Source of the DNA: Gemmatimonadota bacterium | Lineage (GTDB): Bacteria; Gemmatimonadota; Gemmatimonadetes; Palauibacterales; Palauibacteraceae | Direction: 5' to 3' | Length of the DNA: 64,000 nucleotides | Assembly: GCA_039587395.1 (NCBI GenBank) | Contig: JBDHIQ010000003.1 | Span: 22,582 to 86,581 of the forward strand | Part shown: piece after piece, positions 5,000 through 43,153 of the stretch | Layout of the letters: every line of letters starts with the position of its first letter | How positions within the stretch are numbered: the first letter of the stretch is position 1 | Translations under genes and position numbers: made by a program | The notes under the pieces: model-generated | Database searches by the model: none | Seen by the model: only the letters and a program-made list of their open reading frames with translations | What the model was told of the DNA's origin: nothing

Positions 5000-5872
5000 C
5001 TACGCGCTCATCCGCTCGCCAGTCTGCACAGCCCCTTCCGAATCCGCAGATCCGACCGTGAACTGTGCGCCCTCCACCCACACGATTGCATTGGTAGGAC
5101 ACCTTGCGGTCGCCGCCGGATCGGCCAGCTCGTTCTTCGAGTAGTCAATCACGGGCAGTCCGTCCACCATTTCGATCAGACCGGGCGCCGCATCCACCGC
5201 GCACCGGCCACAGGCGTTGCAGGCGACGCGGCACACCATCTCCGCCTCGTCACCCTCCAGCATGGTCCTGCACTGGACGATCAGCTGTTGCTCCAGCGGC
5301 ATCAACACGAACAGGTCAAGCGGGCACGCCTCGACACAGTCGTTACAGCCCGTGCACAGCTCGGGGTCCACCACCGGCAGCTCGACGGCGTTCATGCGGA
5401 TGGCGTCGAAATCGCAGACCACGGCACAGTCCGCCAGACCCACACATCCCCAGGCACAGCCCTTTCCGCCGCCACTGACCGCTACGGCGGCGCCGCAGCT
5501 GCCGATCCCGTGGTAATTCGCCTTCCGCGTGGCTACATCCGAGCCGCCCGCGCACAGCAGGCGCGCCACCTTCTTGTTTGCCTCGCCCGCATCCACACCC
5601 AAGAAGCCGGCGATGATGTGGACGTCCGCCTCTCCCAGCACGGTGCATTCGGCGGGCGCCACGTCGCCGCTCACCGCCAGCTCGGCGAACGCGCGGCAAC
5701 CGGCCTGCCCGCAGGCCCCGCAATTGGCCCCTGGCAGCAGATCCGAAACCGTATCGATCCGCGGATCCTCCCACACCTTCAGCTTGCTGTTGGCCAGGGC
5801 AATCAGTGTGCCGAACGTCAGACCGACCCCGCCCAGAATGGCGACTGAAACCAGGATGCCGTCGAGTTCCAT
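5000..5872 (-). CDS. RnfB-like membrane-anchored iron-sulfur protein (orphan; no other rnf genes in window)
   Basis: 290 aa. It has an N-terminal TM helix, the LPGANCGACGQAGC cluster motif typical of RnfB, and two 4Fe-4S ferredoxin-type Cys motifs (CTGCNDCVEACP, CNACGRCAVDAAP). It sits 28 nt upstream of the PFOR start on the same strand. Confidence 0.75.
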   Translation of the reverse strand: MELDGILVSVAILGGVGLTFGTLIALANSKLKVWEDPRIDTVSDLLPGANCGACGQAGCRAFAELAVSGDVAPAECTVLGEADVHIIAGFLGVDAGEANKKVARLLCAGGSDVATRKANYHGIGSCGAAVAVSGGGKGCAWGCVGLADCAVVCDFDAIRMNAVELPVVDPELCTGCNDCVEACPLDLFVLMPLEQQLIVQCRTMLEGDEAEMVCRVACNACGRCAVDAAPGLIEMVDGLPVIDYSKNELADPAATARCPTNAIVWVEGAQFTVGSADSEGAVQTGERMSA

Positions 5873-5884
5873 GGAGATCCCCGG

Positions 5885-7048
5885 CTACAGGTCGCTAAGG
5901 TCCGCTTGCTGGATCAGCCAGGCCGCCAGCAGATCCACGTCGGAGGCCGGCCCGGCCGGAGGCGCCGCGGGTGCTGCCGCGGTCGGTCCTGCCGAGGCGG
6001 CCGCGAGGGCGGTGAGCATCTTCAGCTCCTGCTGCTGCTGAAACGCCGTGACCGATCCCAGATCCCGTCTGGGTGCTTCATCCGGCAGGAAGCTGACCTC
6101 CAGCCGCCCGAGTGCCTCATCGCCACCGGGCTCGTGCACGAACCGGCCGGCCGTCTCCGGCAGGACCGCGGCGATGGCCGGTCCCGCCTGCTCAGCCATG
6201 GCACGCACGTCATTCGGATCGCCGGTCTGCATGACGAATACGCCCGGCGTGATGAGCCGGACCAGCGGCGCCGGGGGCGCCTGGCCGCTCACCGCGAGGG
6301 CGATCTTCTGTCCGCCATCCAGGAACTCCGCCAGGCCGCCCGCATGCAGGTCGGCCCCATTGACTTCCACGACCAGCGGCGGGGCGATCTCTCTCTCTTT
6401 CCCATTCCAGCGGTGGAACGGGAACGCCTCCATCATCGGCTCGTGCTGCTCGGCCACGTAGCGGCCGGATCGCGCGAGCTCGAAAACCCTGGCGGCACCG
6501 AAGATCCGCCCGCACTCGGCCAGGGCGGCTGCCACCTGCCCTTGCAGGTCACCGCCGGCCGGTACCTGCACCCGGTGCACCTCGGCTCCCCTGGCCATGA
6601 CCGCCGACAGCGTCTCGAACGCCCGGCGCATCGGGACCAGCTCCGCCTCACTGATCGACTCGCTGTCCCCGATGATCTCCGTCAGCCGGGCAACGTCGAT
6701 CCTGCCGGCTGCAAACGGGCCGAGCTCGCTCGCCATCCGCCCCGAACCGTCATCGTCCCGGGTCTCGTGCGCCTCCAGGTAGCCCCGCACCTGGTCCACG
6801 GTCACGGCCAGGCTGGAGTGGAACGCTTCACGCGACGGCGCCAGCGCCTCGAGCAGCGCGTCGACCGCCTCTGGACCTGCCTTGCCCTCCTCGGAAGCTG
6901 TGGCGGCGGCTGTCTCCCCCCCGGCCGTCTCCGTGGACTCCCCGGTGGCCTCTTCCTGCGCCGTATCCACGGCAGCGTCCTCGACGGCGGTCGCGACCTC
7001 GGCCGCGTCCCCCGGAGCCTCGCGGGGCTCGTCGGGCTCAGACTGCAT
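5885..7048 (-). CDS. Conserved hypothetical protein (acidic disordered N-terminus, Ala/Pro-rich C-terminus), no recognisable domain
   Basis: 387-aa ORF. Its composition looks protein-like, unlike the R-rich antisense ORF 5906..7336. It is wedged between korB and the rnfB-like gene with small gaps and overlaps the korB stop by 11 nt. The start is uncertain; internal Met codons could serve. Confidence 0.55.
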   Translation of the reverse strand: MQSEPDEPREAPGDAAEVATAVEDAAVDTAQEEATGESTETAGGETAAATASEEGKAGPEAVDALLEALAPSREAFHSSLAVTVDQVRGYLEAHETRDDDGSGRMASELGPFAAGRIDVARLTEIIGDSESISEAELVPMRRAFETLSAVMARGAEVHRVQVPAGGDLQGQVAAALAECGRIFGAARVFELARSGRYVAEQHEPMMEAFPFHRWNGKEREIAPPLVVEVNGADLHAGGLAEFLDGGQKIALAVSGQAPPAPLVRLITPGVFVMQTGDPNDVRAMAEQAGPAIAAVLPETAGRFVHEPGGDEALGRLEVSFLPDEAPRRDLGSVTAFQQQQELKMLTALAAASAGPTAAAPAAPPAGPASDVDLLAAWLIQQADLSDL

Positions 7049-7991
7049 AGCGGTCGAACTCCTGATTCAGGATGTCGATCTTCTCTTGCGCGGTATACGC
7101 CGGCAGGCCGCGCGTCTCTTCGTACCTCGGATTCGCTTCGTCGCGGAAGAAGACACCCAGACGAATCCGCTCGTCCGGCTCGGCATACCGCCGGGCCGCA
7201 TCGATGTCTTTGGGATCGTGCCGTCTCCGGTTCGTATAGATCTTCTCGAGCGCCGGCACGACGATACCCTGCTCGTGCTCCAGCAACTCGACCAGGTCCG
7301 GGTCACGCATGTAGTTCAGGAACACGTCGTCCGTGAACTTCGGACAGCGCTGGAGAATCCGGACGAACGCGAATCCGCGGTGCGCGTACGCGGCCTCTAG
7401 GGTCGCGTACAGATGCGCCGGGATCCACTCGGCCGTCTGGGCCACGAAGGACGCGTTCGTCACGCCCAGCGTAGCCTCCAGCGGGTTCAGCGCGGGGAGA
7501 TAGCTCCCGTACGGCTGCGTGTTAGTCGAATGGCCTTGCGGCGTCGTCGGCGACGTCTGGTTCTTCGTCAGGCCGTATACGGCGTTGTCCAGCATCAGCG
7601 CGACCATGTCCACGTTGTAGCGGATGGCGTGAATCCAGTGGCCGGCTCCGATCGAAACGCAGTCCCCATCGCCCATCACTGCAAAGACGTTCAGATCCGG
7701 TCGGTTCAGCTTGACCCCCGTCGCTACGGGCAACGCACGGCCGTGCAGGCCGTGGAAGCCATACGCGTTCACGTAGTGCGGGAATCGGCTCGAGCATCCG
7801 ATGCCGGACACGAACACGGTGTTCTCCGGAGTGAGTCCCTGGGAGACCATCAGCCGTTGCACGGAGGCCAGAACCGAGTGGTCGCCGCAGCCGGGACACC
7901 AGCGAGCCTGCGCCTTCTCGAAGTCCGCCATGCTGTAGTCCCGCTCCTCCTCCTGGGACATCCAGAGAAGCGAGCAGCCGCTCGCGCTCAT
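7038..7991 (-). CDS. korB: 2-oxoacid:ferredoxin oxidoreductase beta subunit (TPP-binding), KorB/OorB type
   Basis: 317 aa. It has the WCPGCGDHSV motif, the TPP-binding GDGD region and C-terminal homology to KorB/PorB. The start overlaps the korA stop (ATGA coupling). Confidence 0.9.
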   Translation of the reverse strand: MSASGCSLLWMSQEEERDYSMADFEKAQARWCPGCGDHSVLASVQRLMVSQGLTPENTVFVSGIGCSSRFPHYVNAYGFHGLHGRALPVATGVKLNRPDLNVFAVMGDGDCVSIGAGHWIHAIRYNVDMVALMLDNAVYGLTKNQTSPTTPQGHSTNTQPYGSYLPALNPLEATLGVTNASFVAQTAEWIPAHLYATLEAAYAHRGFAFVRILQRCPKFTDDVFLNYMRDPDLVELLEHEQGIVVPALEKIYTNRRRHDPKDIDAARRYAEPDERIRLGVFFRDEANPRYEETRGLPAYTAQEKIDILNQEFDRYAV

Positions 7992-9895
7992 CGGGCACCT
8001 CCTTCGGGCATATTGGCTCGAATCACGTCGTGTATGACCCCGGGCCGGAGGGGCTCGCCGAGCACACGCGTCCAGCAGTCAATGTCCACCAGCGTATGGG
8101 CTCTGAGCAGCCACGCCAGTTGCCCACGGCGCCGGTTCTCATCCGTGATGAACGGGGAGCTCGGGTCGTCGCTGTAATTGATCTCCACCGTCATCACCTT
8201 CTTGAACCGCTTGAAGATCTCCTTGAGTCCGGGCTCGAGCGGAGAGAGGAAGGTCAGGTGCAACGAGGAAACCGAGTGACCTTCCGCCCGCGCTCTGTCC
8301 ACCGCCTCTTCGATCGCACCCCTGGTGCTTCCCCACCCCACGACGAGCAGGTCGCCTGATTCGTCACCCTTCACCGTCGGGGGTCGGAGCGTCTGCTGAA
8401 GCACGGCAATCTTCCGGCTCCGCATGTCCGCGCCCCGTTGGTTGATGTCCGAAGCATACGCGACTTTGCTCCATTCGTCATGGGCCAGACCGGTCGCGGT
8501 GAACTGGCCGCCGGGCTGCCCCGGAATGAAGCGCTGCGACAGGCCCGTTTGCTCATCCCAATCGTACGGCGGCTTGTCCTCTGACACCGGGCTGAGGTCG
8601 GGCGCCGGAGCGTGCCACGACGCGTCCGCCTCGGGCCGCGGGAATGGCGTCACGCCGGTGGCCAGGTTGGCATCGGACAGCACGATCACCACGGTGCGGA
8701 ACGTTTCCGCTATCCGCCGTGCGGTGATCATGATGTGGAAGCACTCCTCGATGGTCGCCGGCGCCACCACGACGTGAGGCGCGTCTCCCGGCTGCCCGAA
8801 GATGGCCGCCAGTAGATCCGACTGCTCCACTTTGGTCGGCAAGCCGGTGCTGGGACCTCCGCGCTGGACGTCGATGACGACCAGCGGGACCTCGATCATG
8901 ATGGCCAGACCCAGAAACTCGGTCTTCAGCGCCATCCCCGGCCCGGAGGTGATGGTGAACGCCGTCTTGCCGGAATAGGAGGCTCCGATCGACACGCCTG
9001 CGGCCGCGATCTCATCCTCCGCCTGGTGCACGACTCCGCCGTACCGCTCGAATACTTCTCCCAGGTGGTGGGATACCGAGGTGGCCGGCGTGATGGGGTA
9101 CATCGCGGCCAACTCCATCCCGGCGGCGATGGCCCCGAGCGCCACGGCCTGGTTGCCGTTCATGACGACCATGTCCTGGGCGGCGGGCTTGCGCGGCACC
9201 TGGACGCGAAAGTCCAGGTTCTCTTCCGCCCACCGCACCCCCAGCTCCAGAAGCGCCACGTTGATCTCCGTGACCTTCGGCGCCTTTCGCCGGAACGCGT
9301 GCGCGATCTGCTCGCGCACCAGGTCCAGGTCCAGGTCGTGGAGGTGGGCCAGGAGCCCCAGCACGAACATGTTCTTCCCGCGCTGCGGGTCATCCACGAT
9401 GGCCAGGCACTCCTCCTCCATCGGAACTTCTATGATCCGGTAGTCGAAGCCCGACAGCTCCTCCATGACCTCGCGCCACTCCTGCTGGATGGACTCGTCG
9501 TCGTGGGTCTTCCACTTGTTCTCCAGCAGGATGATGGCGTCGGGCTCCAACGCGTCCAGCTGGTGCCGCATGGACAGAACCTGCTCGTTGAACGCCACGC
9601 TCAGGTTTGTGCGATCGCCCCAGTTGGTGACCGGCTCCGTGCCGATCCGGATCCGGTTGCCGCTGGCCCCGGCCGGCAACCGCGCCGGCGGCTGAATCTC
9701 GGCAGGGATGATCTCCACCGTCCACACGCCGTTGCCCATCTTGGCGCACACGGCCCCGAAGATCTGGCTGCACTTCTGCGCGCCCTCTCCGGAGTCCGAC
9801 ACGACCTCCACCGTCCACAGGTCCCGCTTGACTGTCCGGGGCGCCTTGCCGCGCGTCTCTGGAGCTGCCGCCGGTGTCCTGGTTTTTGTCGCCAT
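7988..9895 (-). CDS. korA: 2-oxoacid:ferredoxin oxidoreductase alpha subunit with fused N-terminal gamma domain (KorA of two-subunit KorAB type)
   Basis: 635 aa. The N-terminal gamma-type motif is VVSDSGEGAQKC...; the alpha-subunit core follows (YPITPATS, GVVHQAEDEIAAAG). True ATG at 9895-9893. Confidence 0.9.
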   Translation of the reverse strand: MATKTRTPAAAPETRGKAPRTVKRDLWTVEVVSDSGEGAQKCSQIFGAVCAKMGNGVWTVEIIPAEIQPPARLPAGASGNRIRIGTEPVTNWGDRTNLSVAFNEQVLSMRHQLDALEPDAIILLENKWKTHDDESIQQEWREVMEELSGFDYRIIEVPMEEECLAIVDDPQRGKNMFVLGLLAHLHDLDLDLVREQIAHAFRRKAPKVTEINVALLELGVRWAEENLDFRVQVPRKPAAQDMVVMNGNQAVALGAIAAGMELAAMYPITPATSVSHHLGEVFERYGGVVHQAEDEIAAAGVSIGASYSGKTAFTITSGPGMALKTEFLGLAIMIEVPLVVIDVQRGGPSTGLPTKVEQSDLLAAIFGQPGDAPHVVVAPATIEECFHIMITARRIAETFRTVVIVLSDANLATGVTPFPRPEADASWHAPAPDLSPVSEDKPPYDWDEQTGLSQRFIPGQPGGQFTATGLAHDEWSKVAYASDINQRGADMRSRKIAVLQQTLRPPTVKGDESGDLLVVGWGSTRGAIEEAVDRARAEGHSVSSLHLTFLSPLEPGLKEIFKRFKKVMTVEINYSDDPSSPFITDENRRRGQLAWLLRAHTLVDIDCWTRVLGEPLRPGVIHDVIRANMPEGGAR

Positions 9896-10066: not shown

Positions 10067-12745
10067 TCAGCCACCCGAACGTGCCCGCTCCAGCAGGGCA
10101 TCCAGGGCGCGATACCTGGTCTCCATCTCGCGGGCGACAACCTCCTCGCTCGGGTCCGAATCGGCGAGGCCGAGGAGCTGGCCGGCCCCGCTCGCGGGCG
10201 TCTCGCAGTGTGTGGCGTCGGCCACCATCGCCCGGCCCGACTCCGTGTCCCCCTCGCTCAGACCGGACTCTTCCCCCTCGTAGGGTCGCACCATGTCCAC
10301 CGCCGTGGCGAAGGACGCCATGGCCTGTTCCGGCCGGCCGCTCTTCCAGGCGATGTACCCGACCAGAAAGTGCGCCTCGCTGCTCTGCGGGTTCGACCGG
10401 AGGACCGTACTCAGATACTCCTCGGCCTCTGCCATCCGCCCGCGCAGCAGCGCCACCTGGCCCAGCCACAGCAACGAACCCGTCTCTTCCTGGTTGATCT
10501 CCAGGGCCCGTCCGAACTCCGCGGCGGCGCGTTGCGGGTCGAACAGCTGACCTCCCACGCACGTGTGAATCACTCCTACCTGGCGGTGTACGCGGGCGTC
10601 CCGGGGGTTGATCGTCAGGAGACGCTCCCAGGCCAGCGCCGCACCCGGCTGATCGCCCAGGTCGAACCGCATGTTGCCCAGCCAGTACAGCGTGTTCTCG
10701 TGCTCCGGATCGAGTTCGAGCGCCGCTTCGTAGTCCGCCGCCGCCGCACCCGTCCGCCCTTCGATGCGGTGCCGCGTGGCGCTCCGGTACAGCTCCCAGA
10801 ACCGGAGCACGGTCTCGCGGTCGGCCGACGCCGTCCCACCCTCAACCCGGGGGGCACCGGAAGCCCGCAAGGCACCGGGCACTGCGCCGGCCAGCGCCGC
10901 CTGGCCAGGCAGCGGTCCGGCCTCCGCCCGCACGATCCCCTCGCCTTCCACCAGGTCGATGGTCTGGTTGGGGGCAATCCCCGTGAACGCCTCGCGCCGG
11001 CCGCCGGGCCAGAACACTTCCAGCGTGTCCACCGGCTCGTCCACGCCGGCCAGGCCCCCGAGACCGAAGTGCTCAACGGAGCTGTTCTGGGACAGGTAGG
11101 ACCCCTGCGCACCCGCGTACCGCGACTGAACCTGCCCGCCGGCGACCAGGCGGAGCCGTGCCCCGACCGGATCCGTCCCGCCGTCCTGGGGACTCAACCG
11201 CACTTTCAGCCATGCGTTCCGGTTCCCGCCATCGTTGCGCAGAAGGACTCCGGGACCGCCGTTGTTGACGATGAAGACATCCACATCTCCATCGTTGTCG
11301 TAGTCTCCGAACGCGGCGCCGCGCCCGACCAGCGTGCGTGCGAAGTGCTCGCCGCTGGCGCTGGACACGTCGAAGAAGCCGTCTTCGGCGCCGCGGTTCC
11401 AGAACAGCTTGTCGGGCATTGCCACCAGCCGCTCGGGCTCCTCCGGTTCCTGGAAAGTGCTCCCGTTGACTACCAGCAGGTCCAGCTTGCCGTCATTATC
11501 GTAGTCGAAGAACGAGGTCCCCCACCCGATGTAGTCCAGCGCGATCTGACCCAGCCCGTGCCGGTCGGCCTCGTCCATGAACTGGAGTTGGCTCGAGGCG
11601 GGGCGGCCCAGCTCTTCCAGCCGTGACCGCATGCTGCTGAACAGCGCGTTCTCCTGGGCAATCCAGTGGGTGACGAAGATGTCCGGATCCTCATCGCCAT
11701 CCCAGTCGCCGACGGCCAGGCCCATCGCTCCCCGGTAGTCGGACACCAGCGCGGCGTGGCTCACGTCGCGGAACGTCCCGTCCCCGAGGTTGCGGTAGAG
11801 GGCGTTGTCGGACACGTCGTTGGCCACGTACAGGTCCAGCAGCCCGTCGCCGTCAAAGTCTGCCCACGAGACGCCCAGGCTGCGTCCCTCGCGGCCGTCC
11901 ACGCCGCTCTCCCGGGCCACTTCCTGGAACGTCCCGTCCCCGCGGTTCCGGAACAGAAGGTTGCGCTCGGGTCGGAAGGACGAAGGGTTGAGGCTGGCCG
12001 GCACTTCCACGTCGTACTGCAGCGAGGTCGGGCCTCCCGCTCCGGGCGAGTACTTCACGTACCCCGCCACGTACAGGTCCAGGTCGCCGTCCTGGTCGTA
12101 GTCGGCCCACGCGGCGCCGGCCCAGTAGCCCACGTGGCCGGCGATGCCGGACGCACGCGTCACATCTTCGAACGATCCATCGCCGGTGTTCCGGTACAGC
12201 CGGTTCTCCCCGTACGCCGACACGAACAGGTCCCGCCACCCGTCGCCGTCGTAGTCTCCCCAGGCGCCGGCCATGTCCAAGCCGCGGAACCTCACGCCGG
12301 CCCCATCGCTCACTTCGGTGAACGTCCCGTCACCCTGGTTGTGGTACAGGGCGCTGTGGACCGGCGCCGCCTGCAGTTCCTCCGTCGACAGCGTGAGAGG
12401 GCCTGCCAGGTTCGCCACGAATAGATCCGGCCAACCGTCGTTGTCGTAGTCTCCCCACGCGGCGCCCGACCCCATGTCCTCCGGAAGCTGGCTGCTGCGC
12501 GAGCCGGAAAAGTGACGGAACTCGATGCCTGCCTGAGCGGTCACGTCCGTGAACGTCACCCGTGGATAGTCGTCCGGCAGCGCACGGTCCAGCCCACGGG
12601 TGAGGCCCTCTATCTCCTCGCCCGGCCGGTACACGTCGCCTGGCCGCACGACGAGCCATACAGCCAGGACCGACGCCACCGTGAACAGGAGTCCGGCGCC
12701 GGCCGTGATGGCCAGATTGCGCTTGCGTCGCGGCAGATTTCTCAT
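10067..12745 (-). CDS. CRTAC1/ASPIC-UnbV family FG-GAP/VCBS-repeat protein with C-terminal TPR repeats, N-terminal signal anchor
   Basis: 892 aa. It has repeated GDYDNDGWPDLFV and WADYDQDGDLDLYV FG-GAP motifs, an UnbV/ASPIC-like middle region, and a C-terminal TPR region (YEAALELDPEHENTLYWLGN...). ATG at 12745. Confidence 0.8.
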   Translation of the reverse strand: MRNLPRRKRNLAITAGAGLLFTVASVLAVWLVVRPGDVYRPGEEIEGLTRGLDRALPDDYPRVTFTDVTAQAGIEFRHFSGSRSSQLPEDMGSGAAWGDYDNDGWPDLFVANLAGPLTLSTEELQAAPVHSALYHNQGDGTFTEVSDGAGVRFRGLDMAGAWGDYDGDGWRDLFVSAYGENRLYRNTGDGSFEDVTRASGIAGHVGYWAGAAWADYDQDGDLDLYVAGYVKYSPGAGGPTSLQYDVEVPASLNPSSFRPERNLLFRNRGDGTFQEVARESGVDGREGRSLGVSWADFDGDGLLDLYVANDVSDNALYRNLGDGTFRDVSHAALVSDYRGAMGLAVGDWDGDEDPDIFVTHWIAQENALFSSMRSRLEELGRPASSQLQFMDEADRHGLGQIALDYIGWGTSFFDYDNDGKLDLLVVNGSTFQEPEEPERLVAMPDKLFWNRGAEDGFFDVSSASGEHFARTLVGRGAAFGDYDNDGDVDVFIVNNGGPGVLLRNDGGNRNAWLKVRLSPQDGGTDPVGARLRLVAGGQVQSRYAGAQGSYLSQNSSVEHFGLGGLAGVDEPVDTLEVFWPGGRREAFTGIAPNQTIDLVEGEGIVRAEAGPLPGQAALAGAVPGALRASGAPRVEGGTASADRETVLRFWELYRSATRHRIEGRTGAAAADYEAALELDPEHENTLYWLGNMRFDLGDQPGAALAWERLLTINPRDARVHRQVGVIHTCVGGQLFDPQRAAAEFGRALEINQEETGSLLWLGQVALLRGRMAEAEEYLSTVLRSNPQSSEAHFLVGYIAWKSGRPEQAMASFATAVDMVRPYEGEESGLSEGDTESGRAMVADATHCETPASGAGQLLGLADSDPSEEVVAREMETRYRALDALLERARSGG

Positions 12746-14168: not shown

Positions 14169-16307
14169 TCAGCGTCCGGAGGCGGGTGCCTCCGTTGTCT
14201 GGCCGACCGCGATGGTCGCCTCGGCCTCCGACATCACCGTGACCGGAGCCGTCAGACCCGAGTCCTCTCCAAACAGGAAATTCAGGAGGAACTGGTCGAA
14301 CTTCCGGTACAGGAGGCGGGCTTCCACGTGCAGCTGCGTAGCCGATCCCGCCGGCGCTTCGACGCCGAACTCTTGCTCGGTCTGGAACCCCTCACCGGCC
14401 GACTCGCCCCCCAGCATCGTGGCCGGACAGATGAATGCAAACTCGGCCTGATCCGAGAACCCGGGGAACATCGCGCGCCGGTACCGTACGCCGACCATCT
14501 CCCACAGGTTGTGGCGATCGATGAGGTTGCCGTACTGGTCTACGGGCTCCGCCTTGAAGATGAACGAGCCGGGCTCGATGAAGTGCCGCTCGTCGCGCTG
14601 CCCTGACTCGAATACCACGTTGCCCGCTTCATCGGTCACGACCAGCTCCACCCAGGCCTGGATGATATCGAGCGGTCCGGTCGGAAAGTCGTGGCCCACC
14701 TTGTTGTTCGTAATCGATACCTGGATGTCGATCGCATCGCCCGGCTGGACTCTCTCGGGCGCGATGATCTCGATCGGCACCGCCGGACCTGCCTGCCACT
14801 TGTGCGCGATCTCCGGGATCTCCAGCTCGCCGCGCAGCCACTGCCTGGTCAGGCTCACCTGCTCCTCGGCTCCCGGTAGCTGCAGCGCCACCGGCATGAA
14901 CTGATTGGCAGCCAGGAACCGGTGGCTGCGGTGCTTCCCATCGCCCGGCGAGCGGTTGTAATCCAGATCATCTCCACTCGCCGCGTCGTCCGAGTCCTGG
15001 AGCGGCATGTGGCACTCCCGGCACTCGACGGTCTTTTCCGGGTCGCCGGGGTGGTTCCAGCGGCTCTTGCGCCAGTTGTCGTACTGGTTCTGGAGCTGCA
15101 CCCAGCCCACCTGGTTGATCTCCTCGTCGATGAACTGCTTGTGGCAGGCGGCGCAGAATTCAGGGCTCTTGAACAGCGTGTGCTGCAACGTCGAGACATG
15201 GTGCCTGGGATACGCGCGGATCAGGAAATCGCTGATCCATTTTTCCCGCTCGCCCTCTCGCAGCTCGTACATGTAACGGTCCGGCTGGGTCATCACGTAG
15301 TTGGCGTTGCCCGCGATGTCCGTCTCCTTGATGGCATGGCACGCGACGCACGAGATCCCTTCCTGGTATCCGATGAGTCCCGTCAGATCGTCGGTGAACA
15401 CGTTCTTGGTGCCCGAGAACAGCGAGATGGGATCGTGGCAGCCACCGCAATAACGAGTCGACTCCGCCCCGTTCTGCTCCGCCATCACGGACTGGACCTT
15501 CTGGAAACCGGCATCCATCGCGGACCAGCGATGGGCGCTCACCTCCCACTCCTTCTTGATCTGCTCGTGGCAGCCGGCGCTGCCGCATGCCTCGGAGCCG
15601 CCCAGGGCGCGCGAGTCGAACGCGCCTCCCGTGCTCGTGTTCGCGAGGCTGGGTGCGAACGGCCGGTCCTCTCCGTACAGCCAGCTGTAGTCCTCCGGGA
15701 ACTGGTCGTTGAGCTGGGGCTCCTGGTACCGCCAGGTGAGGGCGGCCACCACCGCCAGCAAGCCGACGGTGACGATCCCGGTGCCGAGGCCGAACCGCCG
15801 TTCGGCTCCCAGGACCACCGCCGCCTTTTCGGTCCTTTTCGCCCGGACGGTCCGCAGGATCAGCGTCCCGAGGTGCGGGAGAACCGACACGACGATGGCG
15901 ACCGTGCTGACGATGTGGACGACATCCCAGGTGTAGCTGATCCGGAGTCCCCACACGGCCTGATAGGTCAGCACCAGCCCCGACACGATGGCGACCAGCG
16001 TGGCGACCAGGGCGAAGTACCCCGTCAGCACGACGTGGGACATTTGCATGCGCCGGTAGATGGCCCAGTGCCGCGCGGCGTACCAGAAGAACGGCAGCAG
16101 GAAGACCAGACCGATGGCCGTGTGCAGGAGAACCATGATCTGGTTGGAGACGCTGAACGGCAGCAGCCAAATGGACAGGCCGGTCAAGGTCTCGAAGGTC
16201 AGCAGTCCACCGACCAGGATCAGCAGCTTCCGTTTCCACTCGTCCGCGCGCGCGTACGGGTCTTTGCGCTCGGTTGAAGCTTCCATCTTCGCGTTCACGG
16301 TGTTCAT
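14169..16307 (-). CDS. Membrane-anchored multiheme c-type cytochrome (five CxxCH) fused to an N-terminal 5-TM domain containing 4 His (putative dihaem b)
   Basis: 712 aa. Five N-terminal hydrophobic helices carry His residues in LLHTAIG, ARHW, VVHIVS and LPHLG. The haem-c motifs are CGSAGCH, CGGCH, CVACH, CAACH and CRECH. A C-terminal domain of about 250 aa has no haem motif. The strong RBS GGGGAGGA lies directly before the ATG. Confidence 0.8.
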   Translation of the reverse strand: MNTVNAKMEASTERKDPYARADEWKRKLLILVGGLLTFETLTGLSIWLLPFSVSNQIMVLLHTAIGLVFLLPFFWYAARHWAIYRRMQMSHVVLTGYFALVATLVAIVSGLVLTYQAVWGLRISYTWDVVHIVSTVAIVVSVLPHLGTLILRTVRAKRTEKAAVVLGAERRFGLGTGIVTVGLLAVVAALTWRYQEPQLNDQFPEDYSWLYGEDRPFAPSLANTSTGGAFDSRALGGSEACGSAGCHEQIKKEWEVSAHRWSAMDAGFQKVQSVMAEQNGAESTRYCGGCHDPISLFSGTKNVFTDDLTGLIGYQEGISCVACHAIKETDIAGNANYVMTQPDRYMYELREGEREKWISDFLIRAYPRHHVSTLQHTLFKSPEFCAACHKQFIDEEINQVGWVQLQNQYDNWRKSRWNHPGDPEKTVECRECHMPLQDSDDAASGDDLDYNRSPGDGKHRSHRFLAANQFMPVALQLPGAEEQVSLTRQWLRGELEIPEIAHKWQAGPAVPIEIIAPERVQPGDAIDIQVSITNNKVGHDFPTGPLDIIQAWVELVVTDEAGNVVFESGQRDERHFIEPGSFIFKAEPVDQYGNLIDRHNLWEMVGVRYRRAMFPGFSDQAEFAFICPATMLGGESAGEGFQTEQEFGVEAPAGSATQLHVEARLLYRKFDQFLLNFLFGEDSGLTAPVTVMSEAEATIAVGQTTEAPASGR

Positions 16308-16376: not shown

Positions 16377-17399
16377 TCACGGCGTGATCACCCACCGGAC
16401 TCCTTCCCCCCGCCGCAGGAGATCGAACCCGTCGTTGATGTCGTCAAGCGGCACCGATCCGCTGACCACAGGGTCCAGGCGAAGCCGTCCGGATTCTACC
16501 AGGCCCAGGATCTCCGGGTACTGGCCGCCTCCGCATCCCAGGCTGCCCACCACCTCGAGCTCGTAGTACATGAGCCGGGCCGCCGACAACGAGACCGGCG
16601 CGCCGGAGTATCCAATGACACAGAGGCGCCCGCCCTTCCGGATGAGCGCAAAGGCAAGCTCGATGGTGTCCGGCTTGCCGATGACCTCGAATGCCACGTC
16701 CACGCCTCCGTCCGTCAGCTTCCGGATCTCCTTGTCCGGGCGATCGTGCTCGCTCGGGTCCAGCGTCGCCTGGGCCCCCAGCTCACGAGCCAGCTCGAGC
16801 CGCTCCCTGCTGACATCGATGGCGATCACCTTGCCCCCTGCGATGGAGGCGCACTGCACCACGTTCAGACCGACCCCACCGCACCCCACCACCGCCACGA
16901 CGTCACCGGGCCGTACCCGCCCGCGGTTCTTCACGGCGTGGTAGGGGGTGGATACGGCGTCGGCTATGACGCAGGCCTTTTCGAGCGGGAGGTCCGCCGG
17001 GACCGGCACGAGCTCGGCGGCCGGGACTTTGATGAACTCGGCGTAGGCGCCGTCCATGTCGTTCCCCGGCATCACCATGTGCTCGCAGAGGTTCTCTCGT
17101 CCGGCGCGACAGTAGCGGCACCGTCCGCAGGACAGGACCGCCGGGATCAGCACCCGATCTCCGGGAACGGCCGTTTCGACTCCCTCTCCCACGGTGTGGA
17201 CGACGCCCGCAGCCTCGTGCCCCAGGATCAGCGGCGGTGGCTTGAACGTGCGCACTCCGTGATCCAGATAGTGCAGATCCGTATGGCACATTCCGCAGCC
17301 CGCTACCCTCACGAGCGCCTCGCCCGTCCCCGGCCTGGGCGTTTCGACCTCCGTGACCTCCAGCGGCTTCCCGGAGCCATGAAACACGGCTGCTTTCAT
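16377..17399 (-). CDS. Zn-dependent medium-chain dehydrogenase/reductase (alcohol dehydrogenase family); Had-like by context
   Basis: ATG at 17399 (MKAAVFHGSGKPLEV...). It has the GCGMCHTDLH zinc motif and the GCGGVGLNVVQ Rossmann motif. The ORF track start further upstream is a non-ATG extension. Confidence 0.85.
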   Translation of the reverse strand: MKAAVFHGSGKPLEVTEVETPRPGTGEALVRVAGCGMCHTDLHYLDHGVRTFKPPPLILGHEAAGVVHTVGEGVETAVPGDRVLIPAVLSCGRCRYCRAGRENLCEHMVMPGNDMDGAYAEFIKVPAAELVPVPADLPLEKACVIADAVSTPYHAVKNRGRVRPGDVVAVVGCGGVGLNVVQCASIAGGKVIAIDVSRERLELARELGAQATLDPSEHDRPDKEIRKLTDGGVDVAFEVIGKPDTIELAFALIRKGGRLCVIGYSGAPVSLSAARLMYYELEVVGSLGCGGGQYPEILGLVESGRLRLDPVVSGSVPLDDINDGFDLLRRGEGVRWVITP

Positions 17400-17620
17400 C
17401 TTGGTTTCCTTGTGTAGATGACGCGAAACAGGGTCGTCGCGGCCGCACACGATTCGCAGAATTCCTGCAGATCATCCGCAGACGGTGGCTCGAGCCGGAC
17501 TTCCAGACCCAGCGACTCGTACAGCTCCACTGCTTCCTGCAGTCGTGGTGGCGCGCCGACGAATCGCCGCGTCCAGCCCTGGTCGTCCGGTCCATCGGGT
17601 GATAACCCGTTCCCCGGCAT
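17396..17620 (-). CDS. Small hypothetical protein (74-82 aa) between the second ATPase gene and the dehydrogenase gene
   Basis: ORF 17396..17644. The internal ATG at 17620 is preceded by GGAAGGG with a 6-nt spacer. The stop overlaps the dehydrogenase start (ATGA). Composition is protein-like, but there is no recognisable domain and only 3 Cys. Confidence 0.35.
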   Translation of the reverse strand: MPGNGLSPDGPDDQGWTRRFVGAPPRLQEAVELYESLGLEVRLEPPSADDLQEFCESCAAATTLFRVIYTRKPR

Positions 17621-17654: not shown

Positions 17655-18479
17655 CTACGCCGCTTCGAGGATTTCGAGCCGTCGCCGCGCCAGCACGGCG
17701 GCTCCGATCGCGCCGCTGAACTGCACCAACTCGCCGGGAGGCACGTTGACGCCCCCGTGCAGGTGCTCGCGCAGCAGCATCACCATGGTGGGGAAACGGT
17801 TGATGCCTCCGACAAGGGTGAATTCCGGCTCCATCTTGACCCGCTTCATGAGGCGAACCGACTTCTCGATCAGCGACTCCATGGCCCCCCGCATGATCTC
17901 CCCGGGTGCACGCTCCTGGCTCACGTGATTGATGACCTCGGACTCGGCGAACACCGCGCACACCCCTGAGATAGGCACGGACTCCTCGCACTCTTCCACC
18001 AGGGTGCCGATCTCTTCCGTCCCGTACCCCAGGTAGCGAGCTGTCTTCTCCAGGAAGGCGCCTGTGCCGGCCGCGCACTTGTCGTTCAAACGGAAGGTGC
18101 GAACCCGCCCCCGCCCGTCCAGGCGCATGGCCTTCATGGTCTGTCCGCCCACGTCCAGCACGGTGCGCGTGCCGGGGAAGAACGCCCGCGCGCCCCACGC
18201 GTGCGCCGTCAGATCCGTGACCTGGATGTCCCGGAACGACACCCGGTGACGCCCGTAGCCCGTGGTGGCCAGGTACACGATATCCGAACGCTCTGCCGTC
18301 GAGCCGGTCAGAGCCTGGTCCAGTGCCTGGCTGGCTGCCTCCTCCAGGCGATAGCCCGTCGGACACATGCCCGTCGCCAGCAACTCGCCGGATTCCCCTA
18401 GCAGGGCCGCCTTGGTGTACGTGGAGCCGACATCGATGCCGGCCGTGAGGTGTCCGTCGCCACGGTTGGTCCGACTCAT
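17655..18479 (-). CDS. BadF/BadG/BcrA/BcrD/HgdC-family ATPase, second paralog (BcrD/BadG-like), 274 aa
   Basis: Internal ATG ([27 protein letters not shown]) overlaps the stop of the upstream ATPase gene. It has the ASKHA-fold signature DVGSTxTK and the cluster-ligand region [10 protein letters not shown]. The upstream part of the 381-aa track ORF is an R/G-rich artefact. Confidence 0.85.
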
Positions 18480-19294
18480 GCCTCCTCCTTCCCCACCGCC
18501 GCGGGCTGACCCGCACCCTTCGCCCGCTCGAGAGCGAACAAGGCCGCACCGAGCGCCCCCATGAAATGGGATTCCTCGCTCACGTTCAGTTCCGTTCCGA
18601 CTATCTCGTTCATGACGTCCACCATTGCCTGGTTCTTTGCCACACCACCGGTGAACGTCGTTTCGCCTTCGATTCCCACACGCCGCAACAGACCGAAGGA
18701 GCGGCTCCCGATGGAGCGGTGCACTCCCAGCAGTATGTCTTCCACCGATTTGCCACGGGCCAGCCACGACAGCACTTCGGACTCCGCGAACACCGTGCAC
18801 GTCGTGCTGATCACCACCGGCGTCTTTCCGCGCTGTGTCGTTGGCCCGAGCTCATCCAGTTCCAGCCCGAGCGCGGCGGCGGCAGACTGAAGGAAGCGGC
18901 CTGTCCCCGCTGCGCATTTGTCGTTCATGCAGAAGTCGAGGACCTGCCCACCCTTCTCGATGCTGATGGCCTTCGTGTCCTGTCCCCCCATGTCCAGCAC
19001 GGTGCGCGTGTCCGGGAACATCCGGGCCGCGCCCCTGGCGTGGCAGACAATCTCCGTCACCTGGGCATCCCCGAACTCGACCTTGTAGCGGCCGTAGCCG
19101 GTCCCGATGACGAAGCCCACATCCGACGTCCGGATCCCCCCGTCCTCCAGCGCTGCCTGAAACGCGTTCTCGGCAGCCGCCACGACGTTGGCGCCGGTAT
19201 CGATCAGGTCTCGCCCTACGATCGCTCCGGACTCATCGACTATCACGGCCTTGGTCTGCGTGGATCCGACGTCCACTCCGCCGGCATACACCAT
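18476..19294 (-). CDS. BadF/BadG/BcrA/BcrD/HgdC-family ATPase, first paralog (BcrA/BadF-position but short), about 272 aa
   Basis: ATG at 19294 ([17 protein letters not shown]) is preceded by GAGGAGGA with a 5-6-nt spacer. It has the [10 protein letters not shown] motif. The track ORF starts at a GTG at 19315. Confidence 0.85.
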
Positions 19295-19326
19295 CGCATC
19301 CTCCTCGAGCTGCACCTGCGTTCTGC

Positions 19327-20691
19327 CTATGATTCGGCGGCGGCGGAGCGGTTCTTCCGCAGCTTTCGCGATTGGAGGCCCTCGAAGAACGCATCAATGC
19401 GGTTCTTGAGCTGCGCCTCGGAGACCACACGCTTGTCCATCATGTCGGACTCGATGTAGAGCGCCGCCACATCCCGGGCCTCGAGCACCACGCGCCGGCT
19501 GGCGGCCAGACCCGTCGACACGGTCCGGCAGGACTTCACCGGGTGGTATACCACCCCTTCCACATCGTAGTCATCGATCGCCTGGAGCAGGGCCCGGTCC
19601 GGGAACATGAGGCTGTCCGTGGCCTCGATGACTCCGCGCAGCACCCCTTCGGCCAGGCTCTCGATCGGCCGGTCCAGATCGTACTCGAAGTCCAGGTTGA
19701 GCCCGCCGGAGGCGAACCAGGTGTAGGTGGACGTCGCGAACGTGCCACCCCACTCAGAGAACAACTCGTAGAACCTCCGGAAGATCGGGTAGCAGGGCAC
19801 TCCGACGAATACCAGGCGGTGGGACTCGCCCCCCGAACCGTGCGGCCCCATCCCTGCGGCAACCCGCGCCTCCATCTCCTCCACGAGATCCTCGAAGTAG
19901 CGTGCGCCCTCCTCCGTGCCGCGGAGCGCGTTGGCCACTCCCAGGTAGATGGTCCCCTCCAGCATTGCATCGAACGGCGCCGGGCTGTTCCGGTTGAGCT
20001 CCAGCAGCGCTCTCCACGCTCTCCCCATCTGGTTGGTCAGGCGCAGAACCTCACGGCACCGGTCTATGTCGAAAGACACTCCGCTGACCTGCTCACACAC
20101 ACCGATGAGCTCCCGGATCTGACCTTCCACGTAGGTGCGGTCTGCCTCGAACCGGGCCGAGTCGCCAATTGTCCGGACCGCATCGGCAACCTCCGTGTGT
20201 GCACCGTTGGGGCCGATCAACGGCACCGGCACCCTTGATCCCGGCACGTCCATCGTGAACACCGGGTCCTGGTACATGCGGCCCCAGATTTCCGCCCATT
20301 TCACGTAGGTGCTGCAAGCGTTGGTGAGAACCGACAGGCCGGGCGGCGGGATCCGACCCATCGGGTGATCCCCGTTCCGGAGTTGCACGGCGTAGTCGGC
20401 CTTCACATAGCCGCAGACGTCCGGCGAGAAACCGTGATCTTCCGCCAGGTTGAGATAGTCGTCGGAGACTTTGCGCACCGCGGTCTGGAGCGAGTTGATC
20501 TCCGGGAACACGATGTTGAAGTCGAAGCAACGCAGCAGCTCCACCAGGCTCCCCATGACGAAGACATAGGCAGCCTTCTCGCCCCGTTCGGCAGCGGATG
20601 TGAGGTCGGCAAACCACTCCTGGAACAGGCGACGGCCTTCGTCTGCCCCGCGGCCATGCACGCCGGACGCCGCGGCCTTCAGTTCGGTCAT
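19327..20691 (-). CDS. 2-hydroxyacyl-CoA dehydratase / benzoyl-CoA reductase family subunit (HgdB/BcrB/BadE-like), about 454 aa
   Basis: The chosen start [10 protein letters not shown] overlaps the stop of the upstream gene. The N-terminal 70 codons of the track ORF are an R/G-rich artefact. Family assignment rests on length and on conserved blocks ([20 protein letters not shown]). Confidence 0.85.
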
Positions 20692-21914
20692 CACCACTGA
20701 CCCCCCTTCGTCACGAGCAACGGCCTGGCATCCTCGTCGGAGGGCCACGCGAACAGGACGTTCTCGACGAATGTCTCCAGCTGGATCTGCAGGTGCGTGA
20801 AGCTGGTCATCTTCTCTTCGAACTCCGTTTCGAAGTACGGAATGCCCTTCTGCTCGAGCTCCTGGGAGTAGGCCACCTGCTCGTCCAGGCCCGGCTCGCA
20901 CATCTTGGCCGCCGAGATGATTGCCGCCTCCGCATCGGAGCCCCGGATCCGCTCCAGCAGCATCTCTTCCTTCGGCTTGCGCAAATCGTGCTGCACGGGG
21001 CTGTACGAGGAGTTGTTCAGATAGGCATCGGCCAGGTTCCGCAGGGGCGGGCCCTCCAGCGGGACGTCATCGATGATCCAGCGGAGGCCGATCAGGAGAT
21101 CGTCGTCCACCACGTAGCAGAACTCTGAGATGGCCTGGAGCAGATCCAGCGGCGGCTGTTCACAGAACCCGCCTTCGAAGACGACGCGCATCTTGTCCTG
21201 TGCGTGCGCCTCGCGCATCCGGATCTGCGGCAGGAGTCTCTCCAGCAGTTCGTTGTGCTCGTCCCGCTGGATGAGGCCACCGATAGCCACCAGGGCATAG
21301 GCTTCGTCAGCCGCGATCAGCCACGGCTCGTCACGCTTGATCGCGTAGAGCTCGGCAAGGAGCTGGCGGTTGCGGTTGAACACGGCCATGGAACGCCGCA
21401 GCTCCTGGTCTGTCACGCGCCTTCCGGCAATCTCCTCTATCTCCTCCAGCACGGCGCGGTACTCCCCTTCCAGGTAGTCCAGCGCGTGGCTCGAGTTGGG
21501 ATTCTGCGGGAAGTAGAGAATGCGGGCCGGCTGCGGGAGGTTTCGCGCCCAGATCCCGGCCAGGTTGCGCGCCGCGTCGCAGATCGCGTGGGTCACGAAC
21601 AGGTCGATCACCAGACGTTCCGTGAGTGCCAGCTCGAGCGAGCTCTGGAGAATCGAGCAGATGTACGATCCGAAGTGCGAGTCGGCCTCGCGCCGCTCGA
21701 CAGCCCCGCCGCGCACCTTCACGGGCAGGAGACCCGCCGCGTGCGCCAGCTCCTCCGGGAAGTAGACCTGGAAGTGGCCCACCACTTTGCCGCCGCCCTC
21801 GCGCCACTTGCGCACCGTGGGAAACTCCACGTCCTGGACCACCTGGCGGCAGATCTTCAGGGACTCCTCCAGGTCACTGTGAGCCGGGAGGTCCAGCAGT
21901 CGATCGGGCTTCAT
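20691..21914 (-). CDS. 2-hydroxyacyl-CoA dehydratase / benzoyl-CoA reductase family subunit (HgdA/BcrC/BadD-like), 407 aa
   Basis: ATG at 21914 (MKPDRLLDL...). It carries the family-typical KVVGHFQVYFPEELAHAAGLLPV N-terminal block. Confidence 0.85.
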   Translation of the reverse strand: MKPDRLLDLPAHSDLEESLKICRQVVQDVEFPTVRKWREGGGKVVGHFQVYFPEELAHAAGLLPVKVRGGAVERREADSHFGSYICSILQSSLELALTERLVIDLFVTHAICDAARNLAGIWARNLPQPARILYFPQNPNSSHALDYLEGEYRAVLEEIEEIAGRRVTDQELRRSMAVFNRNRQLLAELYAIKRDEPWLIAADEAYALVAIGGLIQRDEHNELLERLLPQIRMREAHAQDKMRVVFEGGFCEQPPLDLLQAISEFCYVVDDDLLIGLRWIIDDVPLEGPPLRNLADAYLNNSSYSPVQHDLRKPKEEMLLERIRGSDAEAAIISAAKMCEPGLDEQVAYSQELEQKGIPYFETEFEEKMTSFTHLQIQLETFVENVLFAWPSDEDARPLLVTKGGQW

Positions 21915-36687: not shown

Positions 36688-36847
36688 CGCTCCAGCGGTT
36701 CGCGCCGGAGCGACTGCGACCGCCTCGAGGCCGCGCGCTCCCGCTTCCGGAGATTGCGAAAGCGCCAGTTGTCCTTAGTATGGACGCCACCGGATCCGAC
36801 GCTTGCGCGTCGCCATCGCCACGTGTCTCAGGAGGCAATTCCCAGGA

Positions 36848-38974: not shown

Positions 38975-38994
38975 CCGGGCCGGGCCCGCCCCCA

Positions 38995-41358: not shown

Positions 41359-41586
41359 TTATCCCTTCGATCCACCGGCGCACCGGGGAGCGCCGACCGT
41401 GTGAAAACTGACGCTACGCGCTGCTGATCCGGCGTTGCAGATCATGCCGAACGCGCCCTACTTTCTCAACGCCCTGACACTGCTCAGCGACAGGTCGTCG
41501 CGCCGGTCCAGGGCCATGACTTTCGAAGACTCGGACATAACTATGCAGCCTGAGCACAGGGTGGCGCGAGTCACCGTCTTGAGCCT

Positions 41587-43110: not shown

Positions 43111-43153
43111 CGCGGCACTCAATGGCCTGGCCCCGGGTCGGCAAGCCACCGTC

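Follow-up and report, generated by a model that had tools for sequence, protein, structure and literature searches.

A widespread fusion of a putative dihaem cytochrome b with a pentahaem c552/MccSep-type domain, coupled genomically to a CRTAC1-like propeller protein

Much of the cycling of nitrogen, sulfur, and metals is driven by multihaem enzymes through which the quinone pool is joined to reactions in the periplasm. In CbcL of Geobacter, which Zacharoff and colleagues are said to have described in 2016, a HydC/FdnI-like dihaem b domain is reportedly fused to a nine-haem c domain. The nearest characterised relative of the protein considered here is MccSep (= ExtKL, GSU2937-2936) from Geobacter sulfurreducens, a soluble periplasmic multihaem selenoprotein polysulfide reductase described in 2026 (PMC13510729; PDB 9wt8/9wt9). 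MccSep consists of a five-haem helical cap and an immunoglobulin (Ig)-like stem; four of its haems (1, 3, 4, and 5) have bis-His ligation, haem 2 is catalytic and ligated by Cys239, selenocysteine (Sec) 325 lies in the Ig-domain loop TNHAGHSIPDGU, and the MccSep family is defined by conserved Sec/Cys (PMC13510729). Here we describe a gene that fuses a domain of this fold to a membrane domain of five helices, found in a 64,000-nucleotide stretch of Gemmatimonadota DNA (contig JBDHIQ010000003.1; hereafter the window). Our reading, held with moderate confidence, is that this is the gene for the membrane subunit of a quinone-coupled periplasmic haem enzyme of respiratory type, so far uncharacterised, whose partner is a propeller/TPR protein.

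An earlier, sequence-only reading had noticed on one polypeptide a His-bearing domain of five transmembrane (TM) helices, a pentahaem periplasmic domain, and a haem-free domain, and this observation is real (Table 1). The position that it gave was right, as was the placing of the gene on the same strand as the neighbouring dehydrogenase gene; the strand needed stating and is the minus strand. The gene is a single open reading frame (ORF) of 712 codons, with its stop codon at 14169-14171. An identical database copy (P0001) has 709 amino acids (aa) and starts three codons in, at GTG 16298, which is probably the likelier start, judging from its better spacing (9 nucleotides [nt]) to a GGAGGA Shine-Dalgarno sequence. 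Selenocysteine read-through was ruled out for this gene, the codon at the Sec position encoding Pro. The AlphaFold model, computed from an alignment that included distant relatives, reached a predicted local distance difference test (pLDDT) score of 91.7 and a predicted template modelling (pTM) score of 0.88; with 46 close orthologues alone the haem domain was poor (pLDDT 55), a defect that was mended by adding the distant relatives.

Table 1. Coordinates in the window of the fusion gene, its parts, and the neighbouring genes discussed in the text
Feature	Coordinates	Strand	Basis
Whole ORF, cytochrome b/pentahaem c/Ig-like fusion	14169..16307	minus	ORF and database copy
N-terminal membrane domain, aa 1-195, putative dihaem cytochrome b	15723..16307	minus	hydropathy, AlphaFold, conservation
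Conserved non-helical linker after TM5, aa 196-235	15603..15722	minus	motif DYSxLYGxDRPFAPSLAxTxTG; modelled at high confidence
Periplasmic pentahaem cap, aa 236-500	14808..15602	minus	haem motifs, conserved distal His, fold matches
C-terminal Ig/CARDB-like beta-sandwich, aa 501-712	14172..14807	minus	AlphaFold, Foldseek, profile; PMC13510729
Conserved partner, 892 aa: N-terminal membrane anchor, seven-blade FG-GAP Ca-binding propeller, UnbV_ASPIC, C-terminal TPR	10067..12745	minus	
Predicted lipoprotein, LGC lipobox, weak NHL/ScyF-like propeller match, called gene 436 aa	12780..14129	minus	
Zn-dependent dehydrogenase, Had-like, last gene of the Bcr-like cluster, not part of the conserved module	16377..17450	minus	
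Bcr/HGD-type reductase-like genes: two BcrAD_BadFG ATPases and two HGD-D; lineage-specific context	17655..21914	minus	

The breadth of its conservation excludes a chance ORF. Homologues number more than 3400 in one database, the top 120 being full-length at 65-75% identity, and form 2986 clusters at 50% identity in a second one, many of them full-length at 28-45% identity. Close orthologues gave at least 585 matches among GTDB species-representative genomes, out of which 80 loci, mainly from Gemmatimonadota, were retained for the comparison of gene context; the other taxa in this set are Bacteroidota (Rhodothermales, Saprospiraceae, and Cytophagia), Calditrichota, KSB1, Marinimicrobia, Fidelibacterota, Latescibacterota, and Krumholzibacteriia. 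A distant sister subfamily occurs in cultured Marinobacter and Alteromonas. The superfamily also includes proteins of 850-960 aa in which TPR is fused to the C terminus of the cytochrome (P0173, P0253; L091, L092), and soluble forms (among P0238, P0247, and P0270) in which a signal peptide replaces the 5-TM domain and TPR is C-terminal, several of them ending in a similar "HVH" motif.

Searched with Foldseek against the PDB, the model returned the low-potential pentahaem cytochrome c552 of Thermochromatium tepidum as its sole significant match (5ZE8; E 1.6e-11, probability 1.00, TM score 0.68 normalised on the target), with CARDB/Ig domains that match the C-terminal sandwich next in the list. 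The family profile found the same protein at E 7e-17, MccSep (9wt8/9wt9) at about 4e-5, and Nitrosomonas c554 at 4e-4; in addition, the fusion protein matches Pfam Cytochrome_C554 and, at E 1.3e-5 and 24 bits against a curated cut-off of 250, NCBIfam ExtKL (NF040886). Judged by predicted fold and profile, the haem domain thus belongs to the T. tepidum c552/MccSep(ExtKL) fold, with a weaker link to c554. The sequence-only reading had likened it to NrfA, HAO, and ONR instead, a resemblance that we did not recover: NrfA chains appeared in the profile search at E 2.2-3.1 and a HAO-like chain at E 5.1, neither score being significant, and CxxCK is absent, so that an NrfA/HAO-type identity was rejected. 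The alignment with NapC/NirT proposed in the same reading revealed no similarity of the haem region (PF03264, E 3.4), and an NapC/NrfH-type identity was rejected on this score and on the five TM helices, where that family has one N-terminal helix joined to a tetrahaem domain.

The cap carries five haem c sites, as had been claimed; four of them are canonical CxxCH motifs (287-291, 320-324, 385-389, and 429-433), and the first, described before as a further CxxCH, is a CX4CH at 241-247 (C241-C246-H247). Both Cys and the His of this first motif are present in 88 of 88 sequences, and many distant relatives have a canonical CxxCH at the same position, which argues that it is a genuine fifth haem site. 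All five sites are invariant in the 46 close orthologues and, together with H259, H370, H462, and H539, are invariant or at least 90% conserved in 79-88 relatives down to 24% identity. These four residues are the only conserved distal His for five haems, three of them supplied by the cap and H539 by the Ig domain, and haem 2 is for that reason likely to have no distal ligand from the protein. On this view no conserved His, Cys, or Met would stand in the distal position of haem 2, which would face the Gln-rich GWVQLQNQYDNW (401-412), the most conserved motif of the family, located where MccSep has its haem-2 ligand Cys239. We propose that haem 2 is open and probably catalytic, and that it lies where the cap meets the Ig domain; a five-coordinate haem is known from Nitrosomonas c554, in its haem II. 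The C-terminal domain does lack a haem motif, as stated before, and covers about 210 aa (about 501-712) rather than about 250; nor is it passive, given that its loop NNKVGHDFPTGP carries the invariant H539.

Because the PDB numbering in the HMMER output is the numbering of the MccSep paper, the alignment to MccSep can be read directly. The loop of the window protein that aligns with the Sec loop is TNNKVGHDFPTGP, in which GHDFPTG-P retains H539 and places Pro545 where MccSep has Sec325. In 72 of 79 relatives, position 545 holds Thr, Pro, or Ala, and Cys is not among the six commonest residues there; Cys239 of MccSep aligns with L405/Q406, and Cys is not among the six commonest residues anywhere in the GWVQLQNQYDNW segment. 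One could nonetheless imagine a membrane-anchored MccSep/ExtKL reductase in which electrons derived from quinol reduce polysulfide (or selenite) at haem 2, a view to which the shared pentahaem cap, Ig-like stem, and GHxxPxG loop (PMC13510729) and the origin of relatives from sediment habitats rich in sulfur cycling lend some appeal. With both residues that are essential in MccSep replaced, in a family whose very definition is the conserved Sec/Cys (PMC13510729), and with the ExtKL model so far below its cut-off (24 bits against 250), we hold this to be very improbable, and the replacement of both catalytic residues indicates a chemistry different from that of MccSep. A true MccSep/ExtKL identity was rejected on the same grounds, namely no Sec/Cys, no equivalent of Cys239, and the low ExtKL score, and on the presence of the 5-TM domain.

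In the membrane domain, a hydropathy scan delimits five hydrophobic segments (aa 28-49, 51-78, 89-121, 125-154, and 171-194), and AlphaFold models helices at 27-48, 53-84, 91-118, 125-155, and 160-193. Arg and Lys are concentrated in the N terminus and in loops 2-3 and 4-5 and not in loops 1-2 and 3-4; from this distribution of positive charge the predicted topology is N-in, C-out, which places the residues after 195 in the periplasm, where c-type haem is attached. Among the five His of this part, H91 is not conserved in relatives, and H62, H80, H131, and H145 are invariant in the 46 close orthologues and invariant or more than 90% conserved in 79-88 relatives of 24-58% identity. On TM2 and TM4, H62 and H131 are close to the periplasmic end and H80 and H145 close to the cytoplasmic one, and this placement at two membrane levels is, as far as sequence can support a predicted binding, the geometry expected of two stacked b haems. 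The four His had been called conserved-looking in the sequence-only reading, for which their loss in homologues would have reduced the domain to a simple anchor; all four are kept in the alignments with distant homologues. The dihaem b module put forward in that reading gains support as a prediction from the two conserved His pairs and from weak b561/DUF4405 matches of relatives: across diverse TM domains of the family, DUF4405 (PF14358) was matched in 12 of 25 and PF01292 in 9 of 25 (best PF01292 E 2.7e-5), and the whole-family profile matches Dcytb (5zle) at E 3e-4.

These matches bear on the direction of electron flow. FdnI, HyaC, and CybB, the characterised members of PF01292, reduce quinone. 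By analogy with FdnI and HyaC, the protein might be a donor:quinone oxidoreductase in which a periplasmic substrate, perhaps bound by the propeller, is oxidised at haem 2 and quinone is reduced on the cytoplasmic side in a redox loop, an arrangement that two membrane-spanning b haems would suit. The occurrence of the module in aerobes that use ubiquinone fits as well, since ubiquinol would be a poor donor to c552-type haems of the low potential that the title of the 5ZE8 paper names. Neither a candidate substrate nor a substrate-oxidising cofactor was identified, however, and none of the special ligands or cross-links (His/Cys, Tyr, or Lys) that are usual in S- or N-oxidising haems is conserved here. 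We judge this alternative unlikely, although worth keeping in view beside the quinone-coupled enzyme with a propeller/TPR partner that we favour.

The partner is the constant element of the genomic context. Among about 89 loci compared, essentially all of the roughly 85 with enough flanking sequence have an FG-GAP/ASPIC gene directly downstream of the cytochrome gene on the same strand, with 47-66% identity, TPR either fused or encoded by the next gene, and frequent start/stop overlaps. In relatives of about 30% identity an FG-GAP gene stands directly upstream, and in the forms of 850-960 aa the cytochrome itself carries the TPR part; the cytochrome gene of Marinobacter salarius and of Alteromonas stellipolaris adjoins or overlaps one for an FG-GAP/ASPIC/HEAT protein of about 1200 aa. 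The module had been presented as a self-contained conduit, a description that this constant propeller/TPR gene contradicts. Greedy ORF clustering of the flanks, which is noisy from antisense ORFs in high-GC DNA, yielded no third gene family common to more than 17 of the 80 loci, and the example of the 17-locus cluster, a 1652-aa minus-strand ORF that overlaps the cytochrome region, was taken as a spurious antisense ORF. The partner has seven DxDxDG Ca-binding blades, and 163 of its positions are at least 95% conserved across 71 sequences.

Several further features of the partner and its surroundings may be recorded. Conservation is extreme in the propeller part, including H78, EDMGSGAAWGD (89-99), and THWxAQENA (359-367), and these stretches look like a functional face rather than mere scaffold, to judge from the alignment. 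Many loci have a second, divergent FG-GAP/UnbV_ASPIC paralogue within a few kilobases on either strand, with 30-39% identity to the partner (L007, L009, L011, L033, L036, L042, L045, L047, L055, L058, L059, L062, and L067 are among them). In Marinobacter salarius and Alteromonas stellipolaris the partner has HEAT and not TPR repeats and precedes the cytochrome gene (L093 6431-12061, L094 2877-8665), and giant LVIVD/Big/TSP3 surface proteins of more than 2400 aa adjoin the pair. The lipoprotein gene wedged between the cytochrome gene and the partner in the window recurs only in L016 and L022 (55-57% identity) and is not a core part of the module.

The mechanism that we propose for the quinone-coupled enzyme would start in the membrane, where the two His pairs would bind two b haems stacked across it and thereby connect haem c1, which in sequence is the haem site nearest TM5, with a site for quinone or quinol. 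From there electrons would pass along the chain of c haems 1, 3, and 4 and branch off to haems 2 and 5, as they do in MccSep. The distal ligands H259, H370, H462, and H539 would make haems 1, 3, 4, and 5 bis-His, and the open haem 2 at the cap/Ig-domain interface would bind the substrate, the chain either delivering electrons to it or collecting them. The membrane-anchored propeller/TPR protein would join the cytochrome in a periplasmic complex as a stoichiometric partner, an arrangement for which the translational coupling and the domain fusions argue, and may hold a substrate or act as a scaffold, a role suggested by the absence of a recognisable redox-cofactor motif. As to direction, we lean towards quinol as the donor and the reduction of a small periplasmic oxidant, on the strength of the open haem with its Gln-rich pocket and of the reductase function of MccSep, the opposite direction being nearly as likely. 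The quinol oxidation assumed in the sequence-only reading is then only one of two possible directions, the other being substrate oxidation that feeds the quinone pool. More tentatively, and at somewhat less than an even chance, we suggest that the fusion protein, the CRTAC1-like FG-GAP/ASPIC propeller, and the TPR/HEAT part form an unrecognised widespread respiratory complex that carries out an unassigned periplasmic redox reaction at the open haem 2.

The upstream side of the gene leads to another interpretation. On the minus strand, the window presents in order a TetR regulator, two enoyl-CoA hydratases, two HGD-D and two BcrAD genes, an 82-aa ORF, the Zn-dehydrogenase, and the cytochrome, followed by the 436-aa lipoprotein, the 892-aa partner, and 2-oxoacid:ferredoxin oxidoreductase genes. 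The gap of about 70 base pairs to the dehydrogenase gene, reported before, was confirmed at 69 nt from ORF to ORF, or 78 nt between called genes, and neither a terminator nor a promoter was found in it, such sites being no more frequent there than in shuffled sequence. The Bcr-like and Had-like genes score below the NCBIfam equivalog cut-offs (BcrB, 215 vs 486 bits; Had, 266 vs 339), and since all scores are well below the cut-offs, benzoyl-CoA is not established as the substrate of the reductase-like system. Besides the window's species, the Bcr-like cluster with the dehydrogenase lies upstream of the module in L014, L016, L020, L022, and L034, all from Gemmatimonadota, and in no other phylum among the 80 loci; two further loci have a bcrC-like gene in the opposite orientation. 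Such recurrence exceeds chance for genes this rare, so that the lineage-specific synteny, as read from these gene orders, is real, and it is not a property of the family. The tie to the reductase operon made in the sequence-only reading therefore stands for the window and five Gemmatimonadota loci, and fails as a general or more than lineage-limited rule.

An alternative along the lines of the sequence-only reading is a self-contained quinol dehydrogenase or electron conduit, functionally like CymA/NapC/NrfH or CbcL and devoid of a catalytic site, that would pass electrons from quinol to soluble acceptors in the periplasm or to extracellular ones and would serve anaerobic respiration in aromatic or CoA-ester catabolism. 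The dihaem-b-like TM domain followed by a multihaem chain would suit it, and so would the same-strand position 69-78 nt downstream of the Bcr-like cluster with no terminator found, the recurrence of the Bcr-ADH-cytochrome order in the five loci, and the 2-oxoacid:ferredoxin oxidoreductase genes after the module in the window genome. Yet the gene upstream of the cytochrome varies from genome to genome over the roughly 89 loci and differs in all other phyla and in most Gemmatimonadota, whereas the propeller/TPR partner is constant, and a dedicated role in aromatic or CoA-ester catabolism is for this reason not apparent. Class I Bcr-type reductases, moreover, draw their electrons from ferredoxin and not from a periplasmic cytochrome, which counts against such a conduit. 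The four conserved distal His for five haems, the enzymatic rather than shuttling function of MccSep, the lack of NapC/NirT similarity, the presence of the module in Marinobacter and Alteromonas, which are aerobes, and the absence of a respiratory context common to the loci speak against it as well, and we regard it as rather improbable.

Downstream of the module, at 5000-9895 of the window (minus strand) and beyond, lie genes for a KorAB-like 2-oxoacid:ferredoxin oxidoreductase and an Fe-S/4Fe-4S protein (PF04060 and Fer4) and, on matching contigs, also one for a 1700-aa fused PFOR. These genes are possible ferredoxin-reducing partners of the Bcr-like system; as they lie beyond the module, the cytochrome module interrupts what appears to be a single catabolic cluster. 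Farther away, the window contains an unrelated glycogen-metabolism cluster at 36803-46533 (phosphorylase, GlgB-type branching enzyme, and a GH57 enzyme).

Several points weigh against the reading of the gene as the membrane subunit of a quinone-coupled enzyme with a propeller/TPR partner. The window protein reaches no Pfam cut-off for a cytochrome b family, its sole match being a sub-threshold one to DUF4405 (E 0.0076), and a TM-only profile searched against the PDB found no b-type cytochrome, only spurious MprF and other membrane proteins. Haem 2 could have M434 (about 92% conserved) or Q406 as its sixth ligand, in which case every c haem would be six-coordinate, and the MccSep alignment near C239 is very low-scoring, with nothing but the motifs of haems 4 and 5 on either side to hold it. 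The partner alignment has no conserved Cys and no recognisable redox-cofactor motif, which makes the role assigned to the partner a guess. Of about 49 loci from Gemmatimonadota, 6-8 have the Bcr-like genes next to the module; these 6-8 form no tight clade in a neighbour-joining tree of the cytochrome that is star-like (distances 0.23-0.27) and poorly resolved, and a local functional link of the module to the Bcr-like genes may exist. Beyond sequence and fold, finally, what we say about the haems, the quinone, and the complex is inference.

In the literature and curated models that we consulted on multihaem/FG-GAP-CRTAC1 pairings, on b/c fusions of Gemmatimonadetes, and on multihaem proteins of Marinobacter, neither the family nor the pairing is described. 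The fusion family is unusually conserved (63-75% identity across phyla) and widespread, and extends to aerobic heterotrophs of the sea, in which multihaem respiration is not a known trait. MccSep shows that the fold can be catalytic, and the replaced residues suggest that the chemistry is another one here. A concrete lead that can be tested is the strict tie of the family to a CRTAC1-like propeller/TPR protein, cultured hosts being available in Marinobacter and Alteromonas; if true, the complex would give bacterial CRTAC1-type propellers their first function. For the annotation of the window, the cytochrome gene should not be assigned to an aromatic-ring reductase pathway.

How the fusion protein compares with known systems can be considered domain by domain. 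With the PF01292 (HydC-FdnI-CybB) and DUF4405 families, the membrane part shares a helical bundle and four conserved His at two membrane levels. Unlike in PF01292, TM2 and TM4 have two of these His each and TM1 has none, and a fifth helix takes the chain to the periplasm; the match to FdnI in the family profile search is not significant (E 0.42), and the window protein falls below all curated cut-offs, including the gathering threshold of PF01292. CbcL, by description, has in common with it the union in one polypeptide of a dihaem cytochrome b and a periplasmic multihaem c part, and a link to the quinone pool, but has nine haems against five; to our knowledge, CbcL has no c552/MccSep-type Ig domain and no propeller/TPR partner. 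For ActA of alternative complex III (ACIII), no ACIII chain occurs among the best 60 of the 62 profile matches with E up to 10, a result that presumes the presence of ACIII structures in the searched database.

For the periplasmic part, T. tepidum c552 (5ZE8) is the best match in both structure and sequence; the alignment runs without a break through haems 1-3 and includes the Ig-domain loop, but c552 is soluble, has 385-435 aa, lacks a membrane domain, and shares about 16% identity with the window protein. The profile similarity to c554 (PDB 1bvb/1ft5; E 4e-4) spans haems 1-2, and c554 is a soluble tetrahaem electron carrier with neither an Ig nor a membrane domain. The resemblance to MccSep comprises an alpha-helical cap with five c haems, an Ig-like beta-sandwich behind it, a W..S.H motif after haem 1, CHM at haem 5, a GHxxPxG loop from the Ig domain, and, here by inference, four bis-His haems with one special haem 2. 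In contrast, MccSep is a soluble protein with a signal peptide and not, like the window protein, one with a His-bearing membrane domain of five helices; L405/Q406 here take the place of the haem-2 Cys and Pro545 that of Sec, and the first haem site is CX4CH. The partner genes differ too, ExtH (rhodanese) and ExtI (porin) for MccSep and propeller and TPR here, as do the taxa, Desulfobacterota and Nitrospirota for MccSep and the FCB group and Gammaproteobacteria for the fusion family.

With regard to the partner, clusters for hydrazine-synthase-like haem proteins (homologues of HZS alpha and beta-gamma) flank a CRTAC1-family FG-GAP gene (PMC12758564). They are the only other case that we found of a periplasmic haem protein coupled genomically to a CRTAC1-type FG-GAP protein, and their haem proteins differ from the fusion protein, no homology being seen here. 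Altogether, the protein, as a probable quinone-linked multihaem oxidoreductase with the c552/MccSep fold, is of a familiar kind, whereas its membrane fusion, its active-site residues, and its partner all differ from those of the systems described so far.

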